From: Candidatus Doudnabacteria bacterium RIFCSPHIGHO2_01_FULL_46_14
GTDB taxonomy: Bacteria > Patescibacteriota > Doudnabacteria > UBA920 > 2-01-FULL-46-14
NCBI GenBank assembly: GCA_001779925.1
Contig: MFEK01000006.1
Span: 80,407-137,912, forward strand
DNA: 57,506 nt
Direction: 5' to 3'
Under the pieces are notes generated by a model. It searched no databases. It saw only the letters and a list, made by a program, of their open reading frames with translations, and was not told where the DNA came from. A program made the translations under genes and the position numbers. Numbering within the stretch: the stretch's first letter is position 1; each line of letters opens with the position of its first letter. Of this stretch, positions 12,549 to 55,788 are shown piece by piece.

Positions 12549-12620
12549 TTAGTTATTGGAAATGCTAATATCGTAAATCAAAATAGTCTGTCTAGGGCTG
12601 ATGAAACTAGAATTTTAAGA

Positions 12621-12647
12621 TGTAATTTTGCATTTTGATTTTTAAAC
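12621..12647. repeat. AT-rich 3'-flank cassette (partial copy) directly after the ftsX stop
   Basis: TGTAATTTTGCATTTTGATTTTTAAAC resembles TGTCATTTTCCATTTTGATTTTTTAAT in the cassettes after atpD and atpA. Confidence 0.45.
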
Positions 12648-12648
12648 T

Positions 12649-13563
12649 TCAAATTTTCAAATATCTGCGTATCACAATCGTAGAAGACAGTACTCCCAGC
12701 ATCAAGCCAGTGGCAATGAGCAAAAGAAAGAGGAGCCAAAAATCCATGCCGAGATAATCAAAACGCTGAACTTCGAGTTCTAAGAATCGGGAAATTTTTG
12801 GGGTTAGCACATAAATAATGGGATAAAGAATCGCGGATGTTAGGAGCGAACCGGCAAGGCCGTAAAGGGCACCTTCCACGATAAACGGGCCCCGTATGTA
12901 CCAATTGTTGGCACCGACGAGACGCATTATTTCTATTTCCTCACGCCGGTTATATATGGTGAGTCTGATGGTGTTAAACATCACAATAACGGTAATTACC
13001 CCGAATATCAGCGTAAGACCGAGACCGAGATTCTTTATGCCGTCTGTGATGCGCGACAATCTTTCCACGATGTCGCGTTTGTCAGTGATTTTTTTGACGT
13101 ATGGGGTAAGTTTTTGGTCCTCAAACATGCTGATGATTTGCGGGTAATCATCGAGGGTATTAACGCGAATAGCGAGTGAAGCAGGAAACGGATTCTCCGA
13201 ATCTGTGAACTGTTCCACGGATTCTATGAGCAGGGGTTCGTCTTTATGCAGTTCCTTGAACCTCTCGCGGGCGGTTACCGAAGGGATGAAAGTCACGCCT
13301 CTAACCTGCGGTAGCAATGAAACCTGTTTTTCAATTTGTTTGATTATGCTATCCTCAACATCAAGTTTAAAATACACACTGATGTCAACCTTTTCTTTTA
13401 TGGTTTCCAGCGATATGTTTGTGAGACTACCTAAAATGAGCAGGCTGGATATTATAAAGAGCGTGATAACCATGACTGCGGTGGCTGCCAGAGATAGCCA
13501 AAAATTGCGCGAATAATTAAGCGCCCCGTTCTTGAGTATTCTATAAAAAGTAATTTTGTTCAC
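12649..13563 (-). CDS. ftsX: cell division permease-like protein FtsX
   Basis: 304 aa with one TM helix, an extracytoplasmic domain and 3 C-terminal TM helices, downstream of ftsE. The GTG start is embedded in the repeat GTTCACCCCGTTAGAAATTCCT. Confidence 0.85.
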   Translation of the reverse strand: MNKITFYRILKNGALNYSRNFWLSLAATAVMVITLFIISSLLILGSLTNISLETIKEKVDISVYFKLDVEDSIIKQIEKQVSLLPQVRGVTFIPSVTARERFKELHKDEPLLIESVEQFTDSENPFPASLAIRVNTLDDYPQIISMFEDQKLTPYVKKITDKRDIVERLSRITDGIKNLGLGLTLIFGVITVIVMFNTIRLTIYNRREEIEIMRLVGANNWYIRGPFIVEGALYGLAGSLLTSAILYPIIYVLTPKISRFLELEVQRFDYLGMDFWLLFLLLIATGLMLGVLSSTIVIRRYLKI

Positions 13564-14361: not shown

Positions 14362-15481
14362 CTACGACCTACTTTCCAAATACTTTTCAATAAACTCATC
14401 AAGCTCTCCGTTCAGAATATCATCTATATTGCTCGTCTCAAAATCTGTCCTGTGATCTTTCACTAGCTGATAAGGGTGCATAGTGTAGCTTCTGATTTGA
14501 TTGCCCCATTCTGCGCTCTTGTATTCGCCTCTCAGCTCCAGTTTTGCTGCGATTTGTTTTTCTTCTTCCAGCTTTTTGAGTTTGGCGGTGAGAATTTTCA
14601 TGGCCTGCTCTTTGTTCTGGGTTTGGCTGCGCTCGTTTTGGATCGAAACAGTGATTCCGCTCGGGATATGCGTGAGGCGTACAGCAGAGTAGGTAGTGTT
14701 TACAGACTGCCCGCCATGGCCAGATGCGGTTTTGGCTTCAAATTTGATGTCTTTAGGATCAATTTTGAACTCCTCCTCTCGCTCTAGCACAGGAAGTATT
14801 TCCACAAGTGCAAACGAAGTTTCTCTGGTGTGTGCCGGGTTGAACGGGGATAGTCGAATGAGACGATGCACCCCTGCCTCGCTTTTGAGGTAACCGTAGG
14901 CATAGTCACCGTGCGCCTCAAATGTCGCGCTCTTAATGCCGCCTTCCGGATTGCGGTTGTTGTCAATGAGAATTGTCTTGAATCCCCGCTTTTCCGCGAA
15001 CCTCAAATACATTCGAAGCAGGATTTCTGCCCAGTCCTGCGCGTCCAAACCGCCTGCCCCAGAGTGTATCGAGACTATAGCGTCATGGTCATCGTATTTA
15101 TCACTGAAAAAGGTGCTAACCCGTGTCTGCTCGTAACGGCGCTTTAAATCCTCATATATGCTTTCTAGCTCACTCCCTGTATTTTTTCCCTCCCCTTGAG
15201 GGGGAGGGTTAGGGAGGGGTGAACTCAATTTTACCAATTCCTCAAGCTCGACAACATCTTTCTCGAGTTTTTCCCAAAACTCCACCTGATTTTTTAAACC
15301 GGCAAGTTTTTTACTGACCTCCTGCGCGTTTCTGTTATCCTTCCAGAAATCCGCTTGACCAACCTGATCTTCTAATTCAAGAATTTTCTGTTTTTTTTGA
15401 GCAAGCTCAAAGATGCCCCCGTAAATCCTCGATTGAGGATTTTAGTTGTACTATACGATTTGATAGCCTTACCTCATTCAT
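14362..15481 (-). CDS. prfB: peptide chain release factor 2, with programmed +1 ribosomal frameshift
   Basis: Frame-0 leader MNEVRLSNRIVQLKSSIEDLRGHL runs from ATG 15481 and ends at CTT TGA (15412..15407), preceded by GGGGG (15420..15416). The +1 frame continues ELAQKKQKIL... into the track ORF. SPF and GGQ motifs are present. Confidence 0.9.
15188..15221. repeat. 34-nt GC-rich palindromic element inserted in frame in prfB
   Basis: Plus strand CCCTCCCCTTGAGGGGGAGGGTTAGGGAGGGGTG, translated SPLPNPPPQGEG. Its reverse complement matches 50049..50082 at 31 of 34 nt. Confidence 0.8.
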
Positions 15482-32181: not shown

Positions 32182-32616
32182 ATGTACAAAGCCATGTTGA
32201 CGCTCGAAAGGAATTCAAGCACTCTTAGCCCGTCCTTGGAGGCAGTGATAATCACTGGACGCGCCGAGAGACTGCTGAAAGAGGGAATGCCGAGAAGAGA
32301 AATAATCGCAGTACTGCGGACAGGCTGGGGTAGTACTCCACAGAAGGCCCTTGGGGTAGCTTGCGATTACCTGATAGGTAAACTCAAGAAGCGATCCAAA
32401 ATGACGATTGGCACTACGCTATTCTTTCACTTTAAAGAAGCATTCGGGCTTACGCAGCTTCAAATCCGTGGGAAGAGATCTAAGCGTCAAATCTTGACCT
32501 CTGATCACCCGCTCAGCAAGCATTTGCCAAAGAGTTTCAAAGACGATTGGGGGAGATCCGATTCGCTCGTGATAAAGGTCGGCGAGGAGTCTGTTGAGTT
32601 TCAACTTTACTCCTGA
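32182..32616 (+). CDS. hypothetical protein (stand-alone transcription unit)
   Basis: 144 aa with strong AGGAGG 7 nt upstream, its own promoter and an intrinsic terminator. No recognisable domain. Confidence 0.55.
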   Translation: MYKAMLTLERNSSTLSPSLEAVIITGRAERLLKEGMPRREIIAVLRTGWGSTPQKALGVACDYLIGKLKKRSKMTIGTTLFFHFKEAFGLTQLQIRGKRSKRQILTSDHPLSKHLPKSFKDDWGRSDSLVIKVGEESVEFQLYS

Positions 32617-32743: not shown

Positions 32744-32777
32744 GTTCTCCGACCTTCCCCTACCCCTTCTCATGAGG
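32744..32777. repeat. C-tract + hairpin element (CCCCTTCTCATGAGGAGGGG type)
   Basis: CCTTCCCCTACCCCTTCTCATGAGGAGGGGGTTA is related to 45570..45599 and 53686..53717. Confidence 0.7.
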
Positions 32778-32799
32778 AGGGGGTTATCAATTCGGACTC

Positions 32800-33252
32800 T
32801 CATTGCCCCATCAGCATCTTTGTCCAATCGTTCCAGGAACTGCCGCTGTCATCATCGCTTTTATAAGCAGTCCAAAATTCTTGCGGAGTAACGATTTTGG
32901 TACCATGGTACTCTTCTACGTCCAGGACTTCTCTATCGTTTGTGATCAAATATTCCGCTCCAGACGAGGCGCAGGATTCAATGAGTTTATTATCCTCAGG
33001 ATCAGAGACGATATTGAGATGCTGGTAAATTTTCACGATCTGCAGATTGGTAAAAAAATCCTCGAGCATTGTCCGGTACTCGCGGTCGCGCACGAGCTTT
33101 CTGAGCATTTGCCGGTTCTCAGACATTGTCTGATGAGTCGCAAACGCTTGAATGCGGCCGTCGATCACCTCGCGGATAATCCTAAAAGCGTAGGAATTTT
33201 CATCCTGCGCTCCCTGAACAATGATGTTAGTATCGATTACAACCTTTATCAT
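32800..33252 (-). CDS. PIN-domain ribonuclease (toxin-like)
   Basis: MIKVVIDTNIIV... , DPEDNKLIE and ITNDRE carry the PIN acidic residues. Its start overlaps the NicO stop by 4 nt. Confidence 0.8.
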   Translation of the reverse strand: MIKVVIDTNIIVQGAQDENSYAFRIIREVIDGRIQAFATHQTMSENRQMLRKLVRDREYRTMLEDFFTNLQIVKIYQHLNIVSDPEDNKLIESCASSGAEYLITNDREVLDVEEYHGTKIVTPQEFWTAYKSDDDSGSSWNDWTKMLMGQ

Positions 33253-35654: not shown

Positions 35655-36069
35655 CGCGCTTCATCTGAGCCACTAGCTCGTTTTTTGAATTGAATTTTAT
35701 ATTATCTCGAATCTTCTCTAAAAGCTGGACAGTGATTTCCTGCCCGTAAATATCGCGGTTGAAATCGAGAATATAAACTTCCAATTTCTTCTCACTCTCT
35801 CCAAAGGTTTCCGCCGCGCCAATGAAAACTAAAGATGGATGCAATAACTCCCCCTCCCCCCCTCTTAGTTTAAGAGGGGGGGCTCCCGGATTTTCATCCC
35901 CCTTAAGATAAGGGGGATTGAAGGGGTTATGAATTTTTGTAAGTGCCACATAAATTCCCTCTTCCAAATCGCCCTCGACAATATGCATGTTGGCTGTGGG
36001 GAAACCAAGCTTGGTCCCTCGCCCGAAGTTTTTTTCGACTATTCCCGTGATTCGCTTGCGTTGAAACAT
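35605..36069 (-). CDS. monofunctional riboflavin kinase domain protein with repeat-derived insertion
   Basis: GIVEKNFGRGTKLGFPTAN...EVYILDFNRDIYGQEITVQLLEKIRDNIKFNSKNELVAQMKRD is the RibF C-domain pattern. The insert is IHNPFNPPYLKGDENPGAPPLKLRGGEGELL. Confidence 0.7.
   Translation of the reverse strand: MFQRKRITGIVEKNFGRGTKLGFPTANMHIVEGDLEEGIYVALTKIHNPFNPPYLKGDENPGAPPLKLRGGEGELLHPSLVFIGAAETFGESEKKLEVYILDFNRDIYGQEITVQLLEKIRDNIKFNSKNELVAQMKRDEHEAHEFFKTYGRIE
35849..35927. repeat. two adjacent GC-rich palindromic elements inside the riboflavin kinase gene
   Basis: CCCCCCCTCTTAgtttAAGAGGGGGGG and TCCCCCTTAagaTAAGGGGGA. The first is related to intergenic 37634..37666. Confidence 0.75.
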
Positions 36070-37626: not shown

Positions 37627-37633
37627 TTTATAA

Positions 37634-37666
37634 CTCCCCTGCCCCCCCTTTACATTAAGAGGGGGG
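37634..37666. repeat. GC-rich palindromic element, intergenic copy
   Basis: CTCCCCTGCCCCCCCTTTACATTAAGAGGGGGG is in the same family and orientation as 35849..35882. Confidence 0.7.
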
Positions 37667-37678
37667 ATAATTCACGTT

Positions 37679-44689: not shown

Positions 44690-45451
44690 CTAGCCTTTCG
44701 GGTAAAGTATACGGGCGACTTTCTTGCCGTCGATCAAGTGCGGAACCTGCCAACTTTCCACCAAAGGTCGCTCCCGTTTCGGTTGCGTTTTCAATTCCGC
44801 GCGCGCGAATCGGCGTAAACCGTCGATTTGTGTTTTGTGCTCAACTGGCAGGACGCGTTGTTGCAAATCATCTACCGTGTCATACGGCAGAATTTCAACT
44901 CGTTCCGAGTGCACAATAAATCCCTTGTCCACCTCTGGTGTGACGACATGCATCGTAGCTTCGCTCCAGGACTCACAGTTCGTCATACGAACGAAGTACA
45001 GCCGTGCGCAGTGCACTCTTCTTCCATACATCCCAAGATAACCACCGCCGCCGAAATCGTGCTGTCGTCCTGGGTCGAGTGGCCCGGGATGCTGATTGAA
45101 GATATTCCCATCAACCGCTTCAATGACTCTCCAGTCGACCTGCGGCAAAAACCCATTCAGCGTTACAACGTCTACTTTGTAATCACGACAGAGACTGACA
45201 ACACGGTCCCACTGGGACGGAGAACCGCTGTGATGTCCCATCTCCATTACATGAATATCGTGGCGACTGACGCCGAGCTCTGTGCCATGCTCGTTGATTC
45301 TTTTCTGTGCTTTATCAATCGCACCGATACCGTGCTGGCTGGCAAAGAGAAAGGCGAACTGGATTTCATTCAGCTCTTTACTGATAACAGCGTCGAGGAT
45401 GGCGGCAAATGTTGTACCTCCACCTGTGACAAACGAAGCCCATCTTTTCAT
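44690..45451 (-). CDS. purN: formyltransferase, PurN (GAR transformylase)-like with insertion
   Basis: FVTGGGTTFAAILDA, VVTLNGF and NQHPGPL (the Asn/His of the NxHPS motif) plus TPEVDKG (catalytic Asp). A ~20-aa insert follows HPG. GGGAGGA Shine-Dalgarno. Confidence 0.7.
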   Translation of the reverse strand: MKRWASFVTGGGTTFAAILDAVISKELNEIQFAFLFASQHGIGAIDKAQKRINEHGTELGVSRHDIHVMEMGHHSGSPSQWDRVVSLCRDYKVDVVTLNGFLPQVDWRVIEAVDGNIFNQHPGPLDPGRQHDFGGGGYLGMYGRRVHCARLYFVRMTNCESWSEATMHVVTPEVDKGFIVHSERVEILPYDTVDDLQQRVLPVEHKTQIDGLRRFARAELKTQPKRERPLVESWQVPHLIDGKKVARILYPKG

Positions 45452-45543: not shown

Positions 45544-45599
45544 TCACCCCTCCCTCAATCCCTTAACCTCCCCTAACCCCTCCTCACGAGGAGGGGTAT
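45544..45599. repeat. C-tract + hairpin element (CCCCTCCTCACGAGGAGGGG type)
   Basis: TCACCCCTCCCTCAATCCCTTAACCTCCCCTAACCCCTCCTCACGAGGAGGGGTAT. Confidence 0.7.
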
Positions 45600-45996: not shown

Positions 45997-47379
45997 CTAC
46001 GAAGTGCGTAATAAACTTTTTTTATACTTTTTTAAGTACCGAAGCGCGGATTTTTTTGTTTTTATTTTCCCTGCGAGTTTTTTTTCTTCAAGCTGTTTCA
46101 AAATCTTTCCCACGAGTACTCCGGGTTTTATTTTCAGGGTTTTCATGACCTCATTGCCGGACAAGATTGGCATGGCCAATGCGGGAAATTTTTCTATCTC
46201 CTTTAAAATTTTATAGCCTTCGCGGTACCCTGTGGGATTCGTATCGCCACGCCCATCAAGCCCCAAGGAGGCCGCGGCATCTGCCCAGTGCACGAGCAGA
46301 AGGTCTCGAAAATAGGGATTTAATGCCCATTTCCGACGAGTGGCCAGCTTCATCTGCACAAAGTCATTCGGCACCATGTGATAGCGAACTAGCCAAGCTA
46401 TCTTATCTTCTTCGACCTTTGAGAACTTGAGCCTGCGGCAAATCTTGCTCACAGTGTCTGCGCCAACTTCAGGATGATTATAAAACGTTGTTTTGCCTTT
46501 TTTTACTTCGCGGGTTTTTGCTTTACCAAGATCATGAAAGAGCACGGCATACCGGGTAGTAAGATCAAAATCTTCATTGACCTCGTCGAGCGCCAGAAGG
46601 CTATGCGTATAAACATCGCCCTCACCGTGATGTTTTTTTGGCTGAGTGATATTTTGACATTCCTTGAGTTCAGGCAAAATGTATTCTAAAAGCCGGGTTG
46701 CATCCAAAAGGCCCACGCCGGCAGATGGTCTGCCTGAGAGAATTATTTTATCAAGTTCCTGTTTGACGCGCTCCGCGGAAATTTTTTTGATGCGACCGGC
46801 ATTTTTTGTAATTGCGTTTCGTGTTTCTCGCTCAATTTCCAAATTCAAAACTGTTGCCAGTCTGACGGCGCGCATCAGACGCAGAGCATCCTCTTTGAGA
46901 CGTGCCTCCGCGTTCCCCACCATCCGGATCCTACCGCGCCTGAGATCCGTGATTCCGTCCACAAAATCGATGATTTCAGAGGTATTTGGATCGTAAAATA
47001 ACGCGTTAAGCGTAAAATCCCGCCTTTTAGCGTCTTTTTCGGCACTAGCTATGAACTTTACCGACCGAGGACGCCTCGAGTCCGCATAGGGCGATTCGGA
47101 GCGAAAGGTGGTTATCTCGAAACCCATCCGCCCAAGGCGGACTGTCATGGTCCCATGCTTTTCGCCTGTCGGAATAGTTTTGGCAAATAGCATTTTAACC
47201 TGCACTGGAGTGGCGGCGGTGGCAATATCAATATCGTTGATTTTTCTTTTCAAAAGCGCGTCGCGGACTGCGCCGCCGGCAATATAAGTTTCGTACCCAG
47301 CCTTTCGCAGTTTTTTTACAATCGCAAAAGCCGTCTCAGAGACAAGAGATTTATCCGGCCAGGTGAATTTCATTTTCAT
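45997..47379 (-). CDS. cca: CCA-adding tRNA nucleotidyltransferase (PolyA-pol head + HD domain)
   Basis: GGAVRDALL..INDIDIAT, RRDFTLNAL and the HD motif VLFHDLGK. Its ATG overlaps the atpC stop. Confidence 0.8.
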   Translation of the reverse strand: MKMKFTWPDKSLVSETAFAIVKKLRKAGYETYIAGGAVRDALLKRKINDIDIATAATPVQVKMLFAKTIPTGEKHGTMTVRLGRMGFEITTFRSESPYADSRRPRSVKFIASAEKDAKRRDFTLNALFYDPNTSEIIDFVDGITDLRRGRIRMVGNAEARLKEDALRLMRAVRLATVLNLEIERETRNAITKNAGRIKKISAERVKQELDKIILSGRPSAGVGLLDATRLLEYILPELKECQNITQPKKHHGEGDVYTHSLLALDEVNEDFDLTTRYAVLFHDLGKAKTREVKKGKTTFYNHPEVGADTVSKICRRLKFSKVEEDKIAWLVRYHMVPNDFVQMKLATRRKWALNPYFRDLLLVHWADAAASLGLDGRGDTNPTGYREGYKILKEIEKFPALAMPILSGNEVMKTLKIKPGVLVGKILKQLEEKKLAGKIKTKKSALRYLKKYKKSLLRTS

Positions 47380-47828: not shown

Positions 47829-47874
47829 TTAATTTAAAATGCAAAATGTAAATCTCAAAATGACAATTAAAAAT

Positions 47875-47922
47875 TTTAAAATTTTACACTGTCATTTTCC
47901 ATTTTGATTTTTTAATTTTACA

Positions 47923-47924
<2 letters not shown>
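47875..47924. repeat. 50-nt AT-rich cassette immediately 3' of atpD
   Basis: TTTAAAATTTTACACTGTCATTTTCCATTTTGATTTTTTAATTTTACATT is about 46/50 identical to 51121..51169. A partial inverted partner lies at 47831..47874. Confidence 0.8.
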
Positions 47925-49787
<1,863 letters not shown>

Positions 49788-49794
49788 AATTCAT

Positions 49795-50808
49795 TCACTC
49801 TAAAGCTATCCTACCCGCGGTTATTTCAGAGAGCTCGGTTGTAATCTTGCTCTGCCGCAGTTGATTATATTCAAGAGTCAGCTCAGAGACCAGATCGCCT
49901 GCCGCATCTGTGGCGTTTTTCATGGCCACCATGCGCGCCGAGTGTTCTGCGGCATTAGTTTCGAGGAGCGCCTGGTAAATTTGCATTGTGGTCAGCTTTG
50001 GCAGAACGTGTTCGAGGACAATGTCCACGGTGGGTTCGAAGAGATAATCACCCCTCCCTAGCCCTCCCCCTTGAGGGGAGGGAATAATACCTGACTTCCC
50101 CGCATTTTCCTCCCCCTCGCCGGGGACCCCCGGAACCGTACTCGGTTTTGGGGTGGGCTTGAGGGGGGAGAATGGGTGGGGGTGAATATTTCCCAAAGTT
50201 TCATCTTCCATTCCCAAAGGCAATAACTCAAGAGTATGCGGTTTTTGCACCAAGGTCGAAACAAAATCCATATAAACTAGAATAACCTTGTCGTATTTAC
50301 CAGCTATGAAATCGTCAACCGCGAGTTTTGCCACAGAGTTGATATCCAAAACTCCAGAAGCCATATCTTTTTTTTCAAAATCCGCGACAATATTCCAGCC
50401 CGAGGCTGGTCCGCCTTGGGCGGAGAGACTTAACTTTTTTATGCTCTCCCTTCCTTTTTTTCCCAGAGTTATGAAATCAACATTGCTAAACTGTTTTGCG
50501 TAGCTGGCTGCTGTTTGCACTATGTTATTGTTAAACCCACCGATTAGTCCCCGATTAGAGCTCATCACAATCACAAGTACCCGATTGGTTTGTTCTGGCT
50601 TTCTGAGGAGGCGATGGAGCTTTGGGTCGGATTTGGAGGTAAGGTTTTGCACCAATTCCCAGGCGTATTTCGCATAGGCGCGTGTGGCCAACGTCTGCAT
50701 CTGAGCCTTTCGCATTTTCGCCGCCGAAACCATTTCCATGGCCTTGGTGATCTGGCGCGTGGATTTGATGGATTTTATTCTTCGTCTTATTTCTTTTGTG
50801 GAGGGCAT
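49795..50808 (-). CDS. atpG: F1 ATP synthase gamma subunit (with repeat-derived insertions)
   Basis: N-terminus IRRRIKSIKSTRQITKAMEMVSAAKMRKAQ and C-terminus NAAEHSARMVAMKNATDAAG...ITTELSEI. Confidence 0.9.
   Translation of the reverse strand: MPSTKEIRRRIKSIKSTRQITKAMEMVSAAKMRKAQMQTLATRAYAKYAWELVQNLTSKSDPKLHRLLRKPEQTNRVLVIVMSSNRGLIGGFNNNIVQTAASYAKQFSNVDFITLGKKGRESIKKLSLSAQGGPASGWNIVADFEKKDMASGVLDINSVAKLAVDDFIAGKYDKVILVYMDFVSTLVQKPHTLELLPLGMEDETLGNIHPHPFSPLKPTPKPSTVPGVPGEGEENAGKSGIIPSPQGGGLGRGDYLFEPTVDIVLEHVLPKLTTMQIYQALLETNAAEHSARMVAMKNATDAAGDLVSELTLEYNQLRQSKITTELSEITAGRIALE
50049..50082. repeat. 34-nt GC-rich palindromic element inserted in frame in atpG (inverted relative to the prfB copy)
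   Basis: CACCCCTCCCTAGCCCTCCCCCTTGAGGGGAGGG, translated PSPQGGGLGRGD. More degenerate G/C-rich copies continue to about 50200. Confidence 0.8.
50395..50427. repeat. 'SAQGG' double-hairpin element, copy in atpG
   Basis: Hairpins CCAGCC-cga-GGCTGG and CCGCC-ttg-GGCGG, translated LSAQGGPASGW. Confidence 0.6.
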
Positions 50809-50851
50809 TACGTTAATTTAAAGTGCAAAAAATCAAAATGTAAAATTACAA

Positions 50852-51115
50852 TTAAAAATGATAAAATATGCCGTGTTTGATTTTCAAAGTTATCATCGAA
50901 ACGTTCATTATCAATGTCAGGCTGCTCATAATTACCAGGGAGTAGCTTCCAATCACAAACCCATATACTATCCACATAATCTGGCCCACCAAGTTTATCA
51001 CACTCCAAGAAATGGCAATATCTTTGGTAGATTTAGTTTTCCAAGATTTATAAACCTGAGGAAATACAGAAATAGCCACCAAACTACCTGCAACGAATCC
51101 AATAAGCTCGTTCAT
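50852..51115 (-). CDS. SemiSWEET (PQ-loop) sugar transporter embedded between atpA and atpG
   Basis: 87 aa, 3 TM helices, PQ motif VFPQVYKSWKTKSTKDIS. Confidence 0.7.
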   Translation of the reverse strand: MNELIGFVAGSLVAISVFPQVYKSWKTKSTKDIAISWSVINLVGQIMWIVYGFVIGSYSLVIMSSLTLIMNVSMITLKIKHGIFYHF

Positions 51116-51120
51116 AAATT

Positions 51121-51169
51121 TTTAAAATTTACATTGTCATTTTCCATTTTGATATTTCAATTTTACATT
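51121..51169. repeat. AT-rich cassette immediately 3' of atpA (overlaps its stop)
   Basis: TTTAAAATTTACATTGTCATTTTCCATTTTGATATTTCAATTTTACATT. Confidence 0.8.
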
Positions 51170-52671
51170 ATCCCTTTTTTAAACTCTCCTATATACCTTT
51201 TCAACCTCTCCTCTATCTCTCCATCCAACTCTTTCTTTACTCGAATCGTGTTTAACAGATCCTGGGCATTAGCTTTGAGGTATTTGTGAAGTCTGTCTTC
51301 AAAATCTTTGACCTTTTCCATGGGCACGTCATCGAGATGGCCTTGCGTTGCGGCATAGAGAATCGCCACCTGGTGCTCCACCGGCATCGGTTCAAACTGC
51401 GGCTGTTTGAGGATTTCCGTAAGCCTTCGTCCGCGCTCGATCTGCTTTCTCGTGCCTTCATCAAGGTCGGAGGCGAACTGAGCAAAAGCCGCAAGCTCGC
51501 GGAACTGCGCGAGCTCAAGACGGAGGCGTCCCGCGACCTTTTTCATGGCCTTGATTTGCGCCGCACTGCCAACGCGCGATACAGAGATACCAACATTGAG
51601 CGCTGGCCTGATCCCTTGATAAAACAAATCGCTTTCCAGGAAAATCTGCCCGTCAGTAATGGAAATAACATTGGTTGGAATGTAAGCGGAGATGTCCCCG
51701 GCCTGGGTTTCAATGATCGGCAGAGCTGTGATCGAACCGCCGCCAAAATCTTTGTTCAGCTTGGCCGCACGCTCGAGTAAACGCGAGTGCAGATAAAACA
51801 CATCCCCGGGATATGCTTCGCGTCCCGGCGGACGGCGGAGGAGCAGAGAGATCTCGCGATAAGCAACCGCATGTTTGGAGAGATCGTCATAAATTACCAA
51901 AACGTCCTTGCCCTGGTCCATAAAAAATTCACCCATGGCGCAGCCGGCGTAGGGAGCTATATAGGAAAGCGCAGCCGGGTCAGAAGCGCCTGCCAAAACC
52001 ACGATGGTGTAGTCCATCGCGCCTCTGGCCTCTAGTTCTTTTACGATTTTAGCGACCTTTGATTCTTTCTGACCGATAGCCACGTAAATACAGGTAACAT
52101 CCTGACCTTTTTGGTTGAGGATAGTGTCAATGGCAATCGCGGTTTTTCCGGTTTGCCGGTCGCCAATGATCAACTCGCGCTGGCCCCGGCCGATCGGAAT
52201 CATACCATCAATGGCTTTGACACCGGTCTGCAGAGGCACTTTGACGGATTCGCGGGTGATGACCCCTGGTGCGATTTTTTCTACCTGATAATATTCATCA
52301 GCCTTGATGGCACCTCGGCCGTCGATAGCTTCGCCGAGCGGATTCACCACGCGGCCGATTAGAGCCTCGCTTACTGGCACGGACAATATTCTACCTGTAG
52401 CGCGTACAGTACTACCTTCGCTCACATATCTTTGCTCGCCTAAAATAATAGTGCCGACCTCGCCCTCCTCCAAGTTCAAGGCCACGCCCGCGACTTTGCC
52501 TTCTTTAGTCTCGAACTCCACGATTTCCATTGCTCCAACCTGGGACAGTCCGGAGATTCTCGCCACGCCGTCACCGACCTGAAGCACTTTCCCGACCTGT
52601 TCGACCTTGGTACCTGTCTCGAATCCTGCAATCCGGTTTTTTAGTTGTTCAATGATATTTTTACTGTTCAT
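51163..52671 (-). CDS. atpA: F1 ATP synthase alpha subunit
   Basis: Walker [10 protein letters not shown] over 502 aa. Confidence 0.95.
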
Positions 52672-53629: not shown

Positions 53630-53640
53630 TGGGATTCTTA

Positions 53641-53717
53641 CTCCCCTTCGTGAGGGGGAGCAAGAGGGGGTCTCGGGTCACTGTGACCTCCCCTTACTCC
53701 CCTCCTCATGAGGAGGG
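53641..53717. repeat. two GC-rich hairpin elements between atpE and atpF
   Basis: CTCCCC-ttcgtga-GGGGGAG and ACCTCCCCTTACTCCCCTCCTCATGAGGAGGG. Confidence 0.75.
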
Positions 53718-53723
53718 AAAATA

Positions 53724-53942: not shown

Positions 53943-54056
53943 AATATTTAACCTTTCTGTCCGTCTCGGTGCTTTATTTAATGTTTTAATTTATATTTGC
54001 GCCGGAGGACTTGAGACTCTTTTTTCGAATCTCGAATATGGAATCTAGAATGTGGC

Positions 54057-54178
54057 TTCCAAATTCGATATTCCAAATTCGATATTCCAAATTCGATATT
54101 CCAAATTCGATATTCCAAATTCGATATTCCAAATTCGATATTCCAAATTCGATATTCCAAATTCGATATTCCAAATTC
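54057..54178. repeat. perfect tandem repeat, 14-bp unit TTCCAAATTCGATA x 8.7
   Basis: Counted directly: 8 full units plus 10 nt. The last unit overlaps the atpB stop codon (54177..54179). A degenerate related sequence lies at 54024..54056. Confidence 0.95.
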
Positions 54179-54974
54179 AGTGGGCTTCGTGCATCTCCGC
54201 TGTCGCCATTGTAAAAGAAACCAGCACCAACATTGAAAACACTATGGCCTGGATAAGGCCAACCAGAATTTCCAAAAACATAAACGGCAGGGGAACAAAA
54301 AACGCGATCAGACCGCCGATAACTGTAAGGAGTACCTCGCCGGCAAAGACATTGCCGAAAAGTCTGAGAGAGAGCGAAACCATTTTTGCAATTTCCGAAA
54401 AGATTTCAATGATGCCCACGAAAAACTCTATGACTGCCACCATAATGCTCATACCGCCCTTGCGAAAACTCTTCCAGATATCGCCGAGTTTTATGAATTT
54501 ATTAGCATAGCGGAAAAATCCAACTGCGATTATACCGAACACGTGAGTCATGACTATTGTCAGTACTGCCATTGCCAAGGTCATGTTGAGATCAGTGTTG
54601 GCCGGCCTAAAAAGCGGTACGAGTTGCACCTCTCCATGCATGATAAGGTGGCGACCGATAGAGCCGATTCCTGGCAAGAGACCAATCCAATTGGAGATTA
54701 GGATAAATAAAAACAATGTGCCGACAATCGGTAAAAACAGAAGAGATTTTCTGCGATCGCGCGTCACCTGATCCATGTAGCCCAGAATTACCTCGAGGAT
54801 ACTTTCCGCAAAGTTCTGAATTTTATCGGGAATCTCTGCCGTTTTTTTGCGCAAAACAACACCGACAATCATAAACAACACCAGCACAATAGAGGAATTG
54901 ATAAAGGTATTAAACACCGGGAATGATCCGATGTTAAATATTGGTTCTGCAGCGAGAGGAGGGATGGCTAGCAT
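54177..54974 (-). CDS. atpB: Fo ATP synthase a subunit
   Basis: 265 aa. The essential Arg lies in LSLRLFGNVFAGE. Confidence 0.9.
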   Translation of the reverse strand: MLAIPPLAAEPIFNIGSFPVFNTFINSSIVLVLFMIVGVVLRKKTAEIPDKIQNFAESILEVILGYMDQVTRDRRKSLLFLPIVGTLFLFILISNWIGLLPGIGSIGRHLIMHGEVQLVPLFRPANTDLNMTLAMAVLTIVMTHVFGIIAVGFFRYANKFIKLGDIWKSFRKGGMSIMVAVIEFFVGIIEIFSEIAKMVSLSLRLFGNVFAGEVLLTVIGGLIAFFVPLPFMFLEILVGLIQAIVFSMLVLVSFTMATAEMHEAH

Positions 54975-55404: not shown

Positions 55405-55788
55405 TTAAGGCACATCATGCAGTACATCGAGAAAAATTTTTGCCTCTGCCTCCTCGTATCCTTTCTGTTTCAAGGCATCAAATGCTTCTCGTTCCAGCTC
55501 GCTTGTGTCCGGTAATCCGTATTCGTCCAATTCAAATTTTACACCCGCTTTTTCCAGTTCCTCTCCCAGATCAAGTCCATAATAACGCGTATGCATTGCC
55601 TCCAGCACTGCTCGGTGCTTTGTCGGCATGGCCGTCAAGTCTCTGCTAAATTGTTTCAGCTCGTCCTTGTGTTCAGCGATAAATCTGTCAGATTCTTCCT
55701 CACTTTTAGGGTATTTTAAACCGCCGTTTGTTTCTGCAAAATTTTTACTTACATTTGGATCCCCTTCGCCCGATGGACGTCTAGACAT
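55405..55788 (-). CDS. hypothetical acidic protein
   Basis: An ORF from MSRRPSGEGD is more plausible than the 55836 start. No motif recognised. Confidence 0.5.
   Translation of the reverse strand: MSRRPSGEGDPNVSKNFAETNGGLKYPKSEEESDRFIAEHKDELKQFSRDLTAMPTKHRAVLEAMHTRYYGLDLGEELEKAGVKFELDEYGLPDTSELEREAFDALKQKGYEEAEAKIFLDVLHDVP

Follow-up and report, generated by a model that had tools for sequence, protein, structure and literature searches.

A palindromic repeat within prfB and atpG

The window analysed here, a 57,506-nt stretch of a Candidatus Doudnabacteria (CPR) genome, contains the genes for release factor 2 (prfB) and for the F1 gamma subunit (atpG), both interrupted by the same GC-rich palindrome. 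A preliminary description of the locus had reported a 34-nt repeat in the two genes, and re-reading the sequence at both sites confirms it: the plus strand at 15188-15221 is CCCTCCCCTTGAGGGGGAGGGTTAGGGAGGGGTG, the reverse complement of the quoted CACCCCTCCCTAACCCTCCCCCTCAAGGGGAGGG, and at 50049-50082 it is CACCCCTCCCTAGCCCTCCCCCTTGAGGGGAGGG. The claimed identity of 31 of 34 positions also holds; two of the mismatches are in the loop and one sits at the TAA/TAG junction. The stated length, in turn, has to be corrected. The 34-mer is the core of a unit of 37-38 nt (15185-15222 and 50048-50085), a length inferred from the limits of the covariance-model matches and from the points at which unrelated metagenome contigs start or stop matching (15186 and 15221-15223). 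The features of the window are as follows.

14362..15481, minus strand: prfB (release factor 2); aligns with solved RF2 chains at E 6e-92
15185..15222, minus strand: solo unit ("A-type REP") in prfB; covariance model R1, 57.9 bits, E 9e-13
32750..32783, plus strand: intergenic variant; R1, 21.9 bits, E 8e-4
45563..45599, plus strand: intergenic variant TTAACCTCCCCTAACCCCTCCTCACGAGGAGGGGTAT; R1, 28.5 bits, E 2e-5; hairpin z-score -3.8
49795..50808, minus strand: atpG (F1 gamma subunit); 337 aa, against 286-300 aa in most relatives
50048..50185, minus strand: long-form inverted doublet within atpG; detected as repeats I3 (inverted) and D19 (direct) and in a DNA alignment to L129 and L128
50048..50085, plus strand: A-type REP of the atpG doublet; R1, 55.7 bits, E 3e-12
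50109..50185, plus strand: second, degenerate ("B-type") REP of the doublet; weak R1 match at 50158-50185
53637..53720, no strand assigned: diverged unit pair with tags inward; R1, 15.4 bits at 53637-53673 (minus) and 18.9 bits at 53684-53720 (plus)

Each unit consists of a TCACCCC tag, a CTAR junction (CTAA or CTAG) and an 8-bp hairpin, CCCTCCCC/GGGGAGGG, closed by a 5-nt loop. The C-rich tag reads TCACCCCTCCC, the G-rich strand GGGGGAGGGTTAGGGAGGGG matches a four-tract quadruplex motif in a pattern search, and the family includes a CCCTCTCCC subfamily. Elements were picked out by C- and G-tract patterns together with the covariance model R1; a sliding GC filter gave no useful separation. Shuffled sequences predict 0.03 matches to the hairpin pattern per window, and exactly two are present; the 22-nt tag pattern likewise has two, with none expected. 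The prfB hairpin folds with 8 bp at -9.9 kcal/mol, and the stem of the prfB copy in locus L131 differs from it by compensated changes. Stem positions are paired in 98% of cases across 33 units; these units were chosen for a perfect 6-bp hairpin, however, so that the high figure is partly built in, and only the movement of a T:A pair in register between stem positions is informative. An Rfam scan of the window returned tRNAs only, without a match for the element. An intein, an intron and a CRISPR were each considered and set aside, because of size and because their defining features are missing.

Absence of other copies in the genome would have refuted the preliminary reading. Copies were found: the window itself contains four weaker variants, all intergenic, and a further copy lies in mnmA, just beyond its edge. 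The variant at 45563..45599 falls in a 546-nt gap between ORFs 44690-45451 and 45997-47379, and that at 32750..32783 lies between an ORF ending at 32616 and one starting at 32800. The inward-facing pair occupies the gap between the atpE-side gene and atpF, encloses no gene, and has a counterpart at the same place in L129 (1882-1965).

The insert in prfB

The solo unit of prfB reads TCACCCCTCCCTAACCCTCCCCCTCAAGGGGAGGGAAA in the coding sense and is translated as SPLPNPPPQGEG(K). The gene carries the canonical programmed +1 frameshift site, CTT TGA, at 15407-15412. Placement of the insert in RF2 domain 1 holds, at a turn between two helices: AlphaFold predicts coil with pLDDT<50 for ORF residues 21-36, between helices 2-21 and 36-59. 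The RF2 model as a whole is weak (pTM 0.45) and was used for this local helix-coil-helix pattern only. The depth of metagenome contigs rises 20-60 fold at the unit, with loose ends at the same positions that delimit it. The RF2 of another CPR-like locus has an in-frame doublet at the same site.

The insert in atpG

The insert in atpG is larger than the 34 nt first reported. What had been spotted is the A-type REP of a 138-nt inverted doublet of 46 codons, which encodes (I)HPHPFSPLKPTPKPSTVPGVPGEGEENAGKSGIIPSPQGGGLGRG. Its outer ends, TCACCCC at 50048 and GGGGTGA at 50185, are terminal inverted repeats and pair in the predicted fold. The gene reads the A-type REP on the other strand as IIPSPQGGGLGRGD; the translations given in the preliminary description, SPLPNPPPQGEG for prfB and PSPQGGGLGRGD for atpG, are both correct. 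The hairpin loop of the B-type REP holds a 42-nt module (about 50117-50160, GCCGGGGACCCCCGGAACCGTACTCGGTTTTGGGGTGGG...), which is missing from the plain doublet of about 95 nt in L129, as seen in the DNA alignment, and recurs in doublets in transketolase (L150) and a LeuRS-like ORF (L156) of other genomes.

In alignments with solved gamma chains atpG residues ~203-250 stay unpaired, and the insert sits at the junction that precedes the C-terminal helix. In the AlphaFold model residues 207-255 are coil with pLDDT<50, while the rest is confident (pTM 0.73). The suggestion that both inserts occupy surface loops is thus supported by models, which predict low-confidence coil or disordered loops, with the reservation already made for RF2. 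Independent assemblies at ENA and NCBI include 10 contigs with the identical 337-aa atpG. Depth also spikes at 50033-50100, in metagenome runs that lack the atpG gene itself.

Origin and age of the inserts

Are these insertions or ancestral sequence? Close orthologues without the inserts exist for both genes (RF2 P0003 in L130 and others; gamma P0123 in L128 and most relatives), so that the insertion reading holds. Both inserts are common to a second genome whose genes differ by ~26% at the DNA level, from which it follows that the insertions are old and not recent jumps. Between the window and L129 the orthologous A-type REP is identical at 35 of 37 positions, while identity is 74% over the whole gene and 77% over the spacer; with the compensated changes in the prfB stem, this points to constraint on the hairpin. 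Both insertions in the window probably predate the split from at least one other sequenced genome and have been inherited vertically; current mobility here is unproven. We found no transposition event, empty-site allele or target-site duplication. Metagenome contigs spanning both genes offered no insert-free allele, which is weak negative evidence given that assembler contigs drop rare variants, and the sole empty orthologous sites (L128, L130) are too diverged for base-by-base alignment or placement of the junctions.

The in-frame reading of the repeat in essential genes in either orientation, proposed initially, holds as an inference from intact reading frames; translation was not observed. 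The three differences between the window copies are those that translation tolerates or needs. With the canonical TCAA loop the atpG frame would give CCT TGA; the atpG copy, having TTGA on the plus strand, gives CCT CAA. The third difference turns TTA into CTA, leucine into leucine. The mnmA copy is read in the frame that normally holds a TAG, and the TTAGGG there is now AAAGGA. The 42-nt extra module, too, is a multiple of three in length, and together these features point to selection on the reading frame. Junction-spanning peptides expected from the inserts include SGIIPSPQGGGLGR and LSSPLPNPPPQGEGK.

Distribution of the repeat across bacteria

The repeat is not confined to one lineage: the family is common, nearly letter for letter, to many phyla. 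Near-identical units occur in Geomonas, Planctomycetota, Chloroflexota, Proteobacteria, a Rickettsiales MAG (L043, L103) and other CPR. With one genome counted per species, more than 119 genome loci from many phyla carry it, including isolates of Geomonas, Lacipirellula, Psychrobacter and Noviherbaspirillum; isolate genomes from several phyla contain exact matches to a 31-nt pattern, and the largest number of matches comes from Geomonas genomes. The unit is further found in 25 low-GC metagenome contigs, and depth spikes with unlike flanks appear in groundwater and soil runs. No exact copy was present among IMG/VR viral contigs, which therefore give no evidence for a phage vector.

The family occurs as single units and as inverted doublets of ~95 or 138 nt, the ~95-nt form being that of L129 and of most CPR copies. 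In CPR-like metagenome contigs gatB, tgt, purH, transketolase, a LeuRS-like gene, der and prfB are interrupted. In-frame doublets checked with Pfam lie in an M50 protease, Zn-ADH, Tgt, GatB, transketolase, PurH and Der, with that in GatB at the same site in two genomes; the identity of the LeuRS-like ORF was judged by eye.

Association with DUF559 genes

ORF clustering of 150 loci provided one further lead, to DUF559; the other recurrent clusters were mostly common housekeeping or signalling families. In all nine DUF559 genes read at the DNA level, from CPR to E. coli ycjD, repeats of the family adjoin the gene (L099, L138, L157, L158, L159, L003, L033 and E. coli ycjD), and in 5 of 7 CPR and Desulfuromonadota loci they lie on both sides. 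Elsewhere the repeats are sparse, at 1-4 per 20 kb. The DUF559 stop codon often falls inside the CTAA/CTAG of the repeat; ORF extensions encoding repeat peptide were seen in ~40% of 120 homologues, and repeat-peptide tails in most of those read among 150 diverse representatives (37% by regex). Different DUF559 genes bear different repeat variants (L033 vs L003). Physical linkage between the repeat family and DUF559 genes is thereby shown.

The bracketed gene belongs to PF04480 (DUF559), a family of ~21,700 cluster representatives that includes E. coli YcjD, and matches the solved "endonuclease-like protein" 3HRL at E 1.5e-25. The closest known proteins are Vsr, Vsr-like homing endonucleases and YcjD-like PD-(D/E)XK proteins (PMC1189080, PMC2677866); Vsr is detected by YcjD profiles (PMC1189080). 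At DUF559 genes the TCACCCC tags face the gene, whereas in intragenic doublets they point outward; a simple deletion within the DUF559 unit would thus not yield the intragenic doublet. Neither the 57.5-kb window nor the ~9 kb of flank added to it contains a DUF559 gene. The literature searched holds no published activity, substrate or repeat link for DUF559. Vsr-type PD-(D/E)XK nucleases are, to our knowledge, not known as transposases.

Discussion

The nearest precedent in behaviour is provided by the Rickettsia palindromic elements (RPE), reportedly described by Ogata et al. 2000, of which RPE-4 and RPE-6 are discussed in PMC3733652. The RPE-like behaviour suggested in the preliminary description is supported, the repeat being multicopy, palindromic, missing from close orthologues and in frame in both orientations. 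Both are short palindromes inserted in essential genes of a small genome, at surface loops. The sequence and the host are unrelated, however; the Doudnabacteria unit measures 37-38 nt or forms a 95- or 138-nt doublet and, unlike RPE, is very GC-rich, in a genome of 46% GC. RPE are confined to one genus, whereas this unit is almost unchanged across many phyla. We do not claim membership in the RPE family, as no comparison was made with RPE consensus sequences. In-frame REPs outside Rickettsia are already documented (PMC3733652), so the behaviour itself is of a known kind.

In architecture the repeat resembles the REP, REPIN and BIME elements associated with RAYT (PMC3116915, PMC3733652, PMC2817692), a literature which also reports intragenic REPs encoding 20-30 residues in several species. 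A REP, as a short multicopy imperfect palindrome of 20-40 nt, is satisfied by the 37-38 nt unit, and a REPIN, as two inverted units forming a larger hairpin, by the ~95-nt and 138-nt doublets. The likeness extends to the short GC hairpin with its tag, to inverted pairs of two unit types, and to an enzyme gene, present in single copy, that its own repeats flank on either side. The differences lie in the tag, which is not GTAG or CGTC, with TCACCCC at the start and CTAA/CTAG beside the stem instead; in the bracketed gene, a DUF559 PD-(D/E)XK nuclease and not a Y1 HUH transposase; and in distribution, classical REP families being species- or genus-specific while this one is near-identical across phyla. 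The terminal inverted repeats of the atpG doublet also recall MITEs; DUF559, which is not known as a transposase, is the one gene located between such ends, and there the tags have the opposite orientation. Among described sequences, the "multicopy palindromic sequences" of Geobacter bemidjiensis (Aklujkar et al. 2010, PMC2996986, Table S6/Figure S2), with the consensus KYYCCCCCTCCCCTTGACGGGAGGGGGYYRGGGGGTGGG...CCCCACCCCYRCCCCCTCCCGTCAAGGGGAGGGGG, have the same build: a hairpin, a YYR junction, a G-rich tag and an inverted partner. They were catalogued only as intergenic repeats of unknown role, without any enzyme, cross-phylum spread or in-frame copies being reported; the intragenic repeat family of that genome is a different one (PMC2996986).

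We consider it very likely that the family is a selfish REP-like element tolerated in frame. The inserts would persist because they fulfil three conditions: the sites they hit are probably surface turns, their length is divisible by three, and the Pro/Gly/Ser-rich peptide that they encode would be an inert disordered loop. Copies with a stop codon in the host reading frame have apparently lost that stop. As an account of the whole, a REP-type selfish unit tolerated in frame together with a DUF559-linked family is the likely explanation. What could be the mechanism of its spread? We hypothesize that the DUF559 endonuclease (YcjD-like, Vsr-like PD-(D/E)XK) mobilises the family in trans, its gene being bracketed by inverted units of that family as RAYT genes are by their REPs. 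Whether DUF559 is indeed the enzyme that moves the repeat could go either way on present evidence; the role is inferred, not proven. A bolder reading, which we are slightly inclined to doubt, would make DUF559 proteins the cognate nucleases of a pan-bacterial non-RAYT REP-like superfamily (CCCTCxCCC / GGGxGAGGG plus a C-rich tag). This would amount to a second repeat-enzyme system that had so far escaped notice, and its in-frame insertions would have remodelled many essential proteins of gene-dense CPR genomes.

Two rival explanations concern the enzyme. The repeats might be classical REPs or REPINs moved by a RAYT (Y1 HUH tyrosine transposase), with the DUF559 link secondary. The REP/REPIN/BIME-like build, with its GC hairpin, 5' tag, inverted pairs and two unit types per doublet, speaks for this, as does the fact that RAYTs are the only enzymes yet tied to REPs (PMC3116915, PMC3733652). 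Yet the tag has neither the GTAG nor the CGTC that mark the described REP superfamilies (PMC3733652), the precomputed Pfam annotation of the CPR loci examined lists no PF01797 gene (no whole-genome scan was made), and the gene adjoined by the repeats is DUF559 in nine of nine cases, all of which makes this rival unlikely. It remains possible that DUF559 is a free-standing homing endonuclease gene lodged in the centre of an inward pair (...GGGGTGA / TCACCCC...) and that the repeats spread otherwise, by hairpin-driven replication errors, gene conversion or an unknown enzyme. DUF559 does lie exactly between inward-facing tags; gene-less inward pairs exist at 53637-53720 of the window, in L157 (15188-15275), in L099 (6775-6874) and in the E. 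coli hrpB-mrcB gap; homing endonucleases resembling Vsr have been described (PMC2677866); and the L159 repeat pair also encloses a 313-aa cargo ORF, for which no Pfam match was found. Against this, DUF559 has nusA on one side and clpP on the other in both L158 and L159 (an additional ORF precedes clpP in L159), which looks vertical and not invasive, and the arrival of outward-facing doublets inside genes is left unexplained.

The other two rivals deny selfish spread or the repeat itself. Functional selection might have kept inserts adopted by the host, either as a gamma regulatory loop at the place of the chloroplast and cyanobacterial insert or as an mRNA/DNA hairpin or G-quadruplex tuning expression. 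The atpG REP arms are more conserved than the surrounding gene, GGGGGAGGGTTAGGGAGGGG has the quadruplex motif, and the insertion in gamma falls at the junction preceding the C-terminal helix. Yet proteins without any relationship carry the unit, in various frames and in either orientation, which no single peptide function would fit; the inserts are predicted to be disordered, and close relatives do without them. We regard host adoption as very unlikely. Artefact or coincidence, that is, an assembly error at a repeat in the metagenome or the separate origin of two low-complexity Pro/Gly linkers, is all but ruled out: assemblies do stop within the unit, with contigs ending at 15194 and 15215, but the atpG protein is identical across independent assemblies, reading frames are intact, the 31-nt exact pattern stands in isolate genomes of several phyla, and the chance expectation is near zero.

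The preliminary description knew of no earlier account of such repeats for this type of genome, and none was found for CPR/Patescibacteria in the full-text literature searched; a full-text search for the repeat sequence strings likewise retrieved no paper. What appears to be new here is the presence of in-frame REP-like repeats in CPR and their association with DUF559, neither of which we found described in that literature. CPR/Patescibacteria are usually called streamlined, and selfish palindromic repeats reside in their core genes of translation, energy and nucleotide synthesis. Many unexplained Pro/Gly-rich insertions in CPR proteins could stem from such repeats, which affect alignment, phylogeny and structure prediction, and also assembly, because contigs break at the units. 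An almost invariant sequence of 31-38 nt in distant phyla calls for a conserved sequence-specific process. The bracketing of DUF559 offers a testable substrate for a large family of unknown function, and a test in E. coli is possible. Should the link prove true, REP-like repeats would have at least two independent enzyme partners.

Extent of the repeat units

The preliminary description placed a 34-nt palindromic element in prfB and atpG of this genome, which best protein matches assign to Candidatus Doudnabacteria. Both copies are present at the positions reported there, with the identity of 31/34 confirmed. The hairpin pattern CCCTCCCC-N5-GGGGAGGG has exactly two matches in 57.5 kb against 0.03 expected, and a 22-nt pattern of tag plus arm has two in the window against none in 100 shuffles. 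prfB lies on the minus strand (ATG at 15481, stop at 14362) with the classical +1 frameshift site of RF2 (GGGGG, then CAT CTT TGA, 15407-15412); atpG occupies 49795-50808 of the same strand, its product aligning to solved gamma chains at E 5e-56. Along the coding strand the unit has its C-rich orientation in prfB (SPLPNPPPQGEG) and its G-rich one in atpG (PSPQGGGLGRGD).

Copies of the unit in the window (bit scores from a covariance model made from 33 units)
15185-15222, unit in prfB (gene on minus strand), 57.9 bits
50048-50085, unit in atpG (gene on minus strand), 55.7 bits
32750-32783, weaker variant, intergenic gap
45563-45599, weaker variant, intergenic gap
53637-53720, inward-facing pair of weaker variants, intergenic gap, kept in GCA_964349925.1

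Groundwater and soil metagenome contigs pile up 20-60 fold over prfB 15160-15235 and switch to unrelated flanks at 15186 and 15221-15223, independently marking the same unit boundaries. The same pile-up covers atpG 50033-50100, in runs without coverage over the remaining gene. The claimed insert size of 34 nt failed for atpG, where a larger insert has the unit at just one of its ends: residues ~203-250 align with no part of any solved gamma chain, and the insert DNA (50048-50185) starts with TCACCCC and ends with GGGGTGA. The atpG orthologue of GCA_964349925.1 contains a plain doublet of inverted units (CCACCCCCACCCGACCTCCCCCCTCAAGGGGGAGG, a 26-nt spacer, then CCCTCCCCTCGAGGGGGAGGGTTAGGGAGGGGTG), and the window copy is a doublet of this type with 42 nt within the loop of its degenerate unit. 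This module is not private, recurring in doublets inside transketolase and a LeuRS-like ORF (identified by eye) of other genomes, which points to two forms of the family, a short one of ~95 nt and a long one of ~138 nt.

Several other repeats and ORFs were observed in the window. Two copies of another GC hairpin, CCCCCCCTCTTA-GTT-TAAGAGGGGGGG, with the common 5' flank ATAACTCCCC (35844-35884 and 37631-37668), match the repeat model only weakly (E about 0.2) and could be either terminators or distantly related to the family. A second, unrelated palindromic repeat lies in frame in atpG (50393-50430). Two hairpins side by side (CCAGCC-CGA-GGCTGG and TCCGCC-TTGG-GCGGA) make up this repeat, and its translation, the 10-residue insert SLSAQGGPAS, is missing from all 19 aligned homologues; metagenome contig depth there reaches about 5000 versus about 10 for atpG, loose contig ends fall at 50393 and 50424-50426, and a relative sits at 2120-2157, the 3' end of a secD-like ORF. 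At 54029-54196, the end of the ATP synthase operon nearest the promoter, the 14-nt unit TTCCAAATTCGATA is repeated in tandem about ten times. A partly palindromic, AT-rich repeat of ~50 nt (AAATTTTAAAATTTTACAYTGTCATTTTCCATTTTGAT) occupies short intergenic gaps, mostly of this operon (12602-12656, 47830-47925, 50827-50867, 51116-51170, 55531-55559). The operon also includes two extra ORFs, kept in every contig with this atpG: 49305-49787, of 160 aa without a Pfam family, between atpG and atpD, and 50852-51115, which separates atpA from atpG and encodes a PQ-loop membrane protein of 87 aa.

Insertion and age

Aligned orthologues uphold the insertion reading of the preliminary description. The atpG product has 337 residues versus 286-300 in most relatives; P0123 is the nearest one that lacks the insert, and P0122 has a short doublet at the same site. 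The RF2 site is an ordinary short turn in P0003 and several others, and the RF2 of the genome of P0122 (P0002) carries there a variant unit, CACCCTCACCTCAATCCTCTCCCCTCAAGGGAGAGGA, whose stem changes are compensated. Comparison with GCA_964349925.1 indicates that both insertions are older than the split of these two genomes. In atpG the intact unit is 35/37 identical and the tag of the other unit 24/27, against 77% for the spacer and 74% for the remaining gene, so that less change has accumulated in hairpin and tag than around them. The prfB unit has diverged as much as its gene (76%), yet retains its folding.

Distribution across bacteria

An exact 31-nt pattern was found at more than 119 loci in a collection that represents each species by a single genome. 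The hosts, cultured isolates among them, include Geomonas and Geobacter (many copies each), Planctomycetota, Chloroflexota, Alpha-, Beta- and Gammaproteobacteria, Nitrospira, Myxococcota, a Rickettsiales MAG, Saccharibacteria and Doudnabacteria, and lineage-dependent variation is confined to loop and flanks. A stricter pattern recovered 25 metagenome contigs, all of 37-49% GC, with at least 9 copies inside long ORFs. Host proteins confirmed by Pfam are an M50 protease, a Zn-dependent dehydrogenase, Tgt, GatB (two genomes, one shared site), transketolase, PurH and Der. Single CPR proteins can hold several repeat-derived inserts, with about five in one PurH from a metagenome contig (L154). Transketolase, GatB, Tgt and the Zn-dehydrogenase were each seen with two (among L150, L148, L144 and L140, loci of other genomes). 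In another contig, L139, the RF2 turn interrupted here is also occupied by a doublet, read in a different frame. Doublets of the Rickettsiales MAG lie in genes for an ABC ATPase and a Sua5/TsaC-like protein, both assigned by eye from the translated sequences.

In-frame REPs are known in several species, and RPE-4 and RPE-6 of Rickettsia are classed as CGTC-type REPs (PMC3733652); Geobacter bemidjiensis has a palindromic family built in the same way, which was tabulated without interpretation (PMC2996986). In the literature searched we found no report of such elements for CPR and none with the present sequence.

Tolerance in coding sequences

As for structural placement, AlphaFold gives a good overall model of the atpG product (pTM 0.73), in which residues 207-255 are predicted as coil of low confidence, linking the last strand to the C-terminal helix; the RF2 insert is likewise predicted as coil, between two domain 1 helices, from a weaker model. 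The inserts appear to be translated, and the three differences between the window copies are compatible with this, an inference from sequence alone. The canonical TCAA loop would give CCT TGA in the atpG frame; the copy has TTGA on the plus strand, and atpG reads CCT CAA. The TAA/TAG difference becomes TTA/CTA in the atpG sense, leucine either way. A further, degenerate copy lies ~9 kb beyond the window start in mnmA (L160, 15456-16571), in the frame normally containing TAG; TTAGGG is now AAAGGA, giving FPPLEGEGKEGV. The mnmA ORF contains a further insert rich in Pro and Gly (NTPQPPLNLRGGAGE). Over ~66 kb of the genome, genes hold all three well-preserved copies and intergenic gaps hold the decayed ones.

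Association with DUF559 genes

Clustering of all ORFs from the fetched loci, in search of recurrent neighbours, yielded a small family, DUF559 (PF04480), common to a Doudnabacteria genome, a groundwater contig, a Desulfuromonadales MAG and a Geomonas isolate. The last three loci listed were picked solely by protein similarity and available contig span, and their unit density is only 1-4 per 17-20 kb.

DUF559 genes and adjoining units in other genomes
L099 and L138: G-rich unit ends 4-7 nt 5' of ATG; stop TAG within CTAG of inverted 3' unit
L003: gene between two full doublets; stop is the unit's TAA
L033: different variant on both sides, CCCTCTCCC/GGGTGAGGGG
L157 and L158: units on either side
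L159, 6383-7799: inverted pair encloses DUF559 and a 313-aa ORF without Pfam match, possibly cargo; site nusA-clpP

About 40% of 120 close DUF559 homologues have N- or C-terminal ORF extensions spelling repeat peptides. Such peptides occur in most tails inspected among 150 diverse representatives, drawn from about 21,700 cluster representatives (37% by regular expression, an undercount). The 3' end of E. coli K-12 ycjD (...CGG TCA CCC TCT CCC TGA) falls inside a degenerate tag, and a unit lies 165 nt downstream (locus L166, 204-243 and 408-761); between them the 3' end of ycjD is repeated as a short duplicate. The E. coli hrpB-mrcB gap (L164, 2450-2540) holds an inward-facing pair without a gene, and 4209/5426 complete E. 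coli genomes have the CCCTCTCCC/GGGTGAGGG variant as an inward-facing doublet (1-5 copies, median 2). The literature searched contains no paper tying DUF559 or YcjD to repeats.

Nature of the repeats

What could mobilise these repeats? By analogy with how RAYTs were found, DUF559 might be the enzyme that would do so, which we regard only as a possibility. Caution is imposed by tag orientation, as units beside DUF559 point their tags at the gene and intragenic doublets point them outward, and by the constant position of DUF559, with nusA on one side and clpP on the other, in two CPR genomes (with one more ORF before clpP in L159). The same observations leave room, besides mobilisation, for DUF559 being a homing-type gene whose home is the middle of a repeat pair. 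The G-strand junction (CTAGG, CCAGG or TTAGG) may resemble the CCWGG context of Vsr, which is offered as an idea only.

We consider it very likely that the repeat is a selfish REP-like palindromic element whose genic copies persist only where they preserve the frame and are structurally harmless. The earlier likening to Rickettsia palindromic elements holds as a description of behaviour. Such behaviour is already known in kind; the association with DUF559 would be the new part, if it survives testing.
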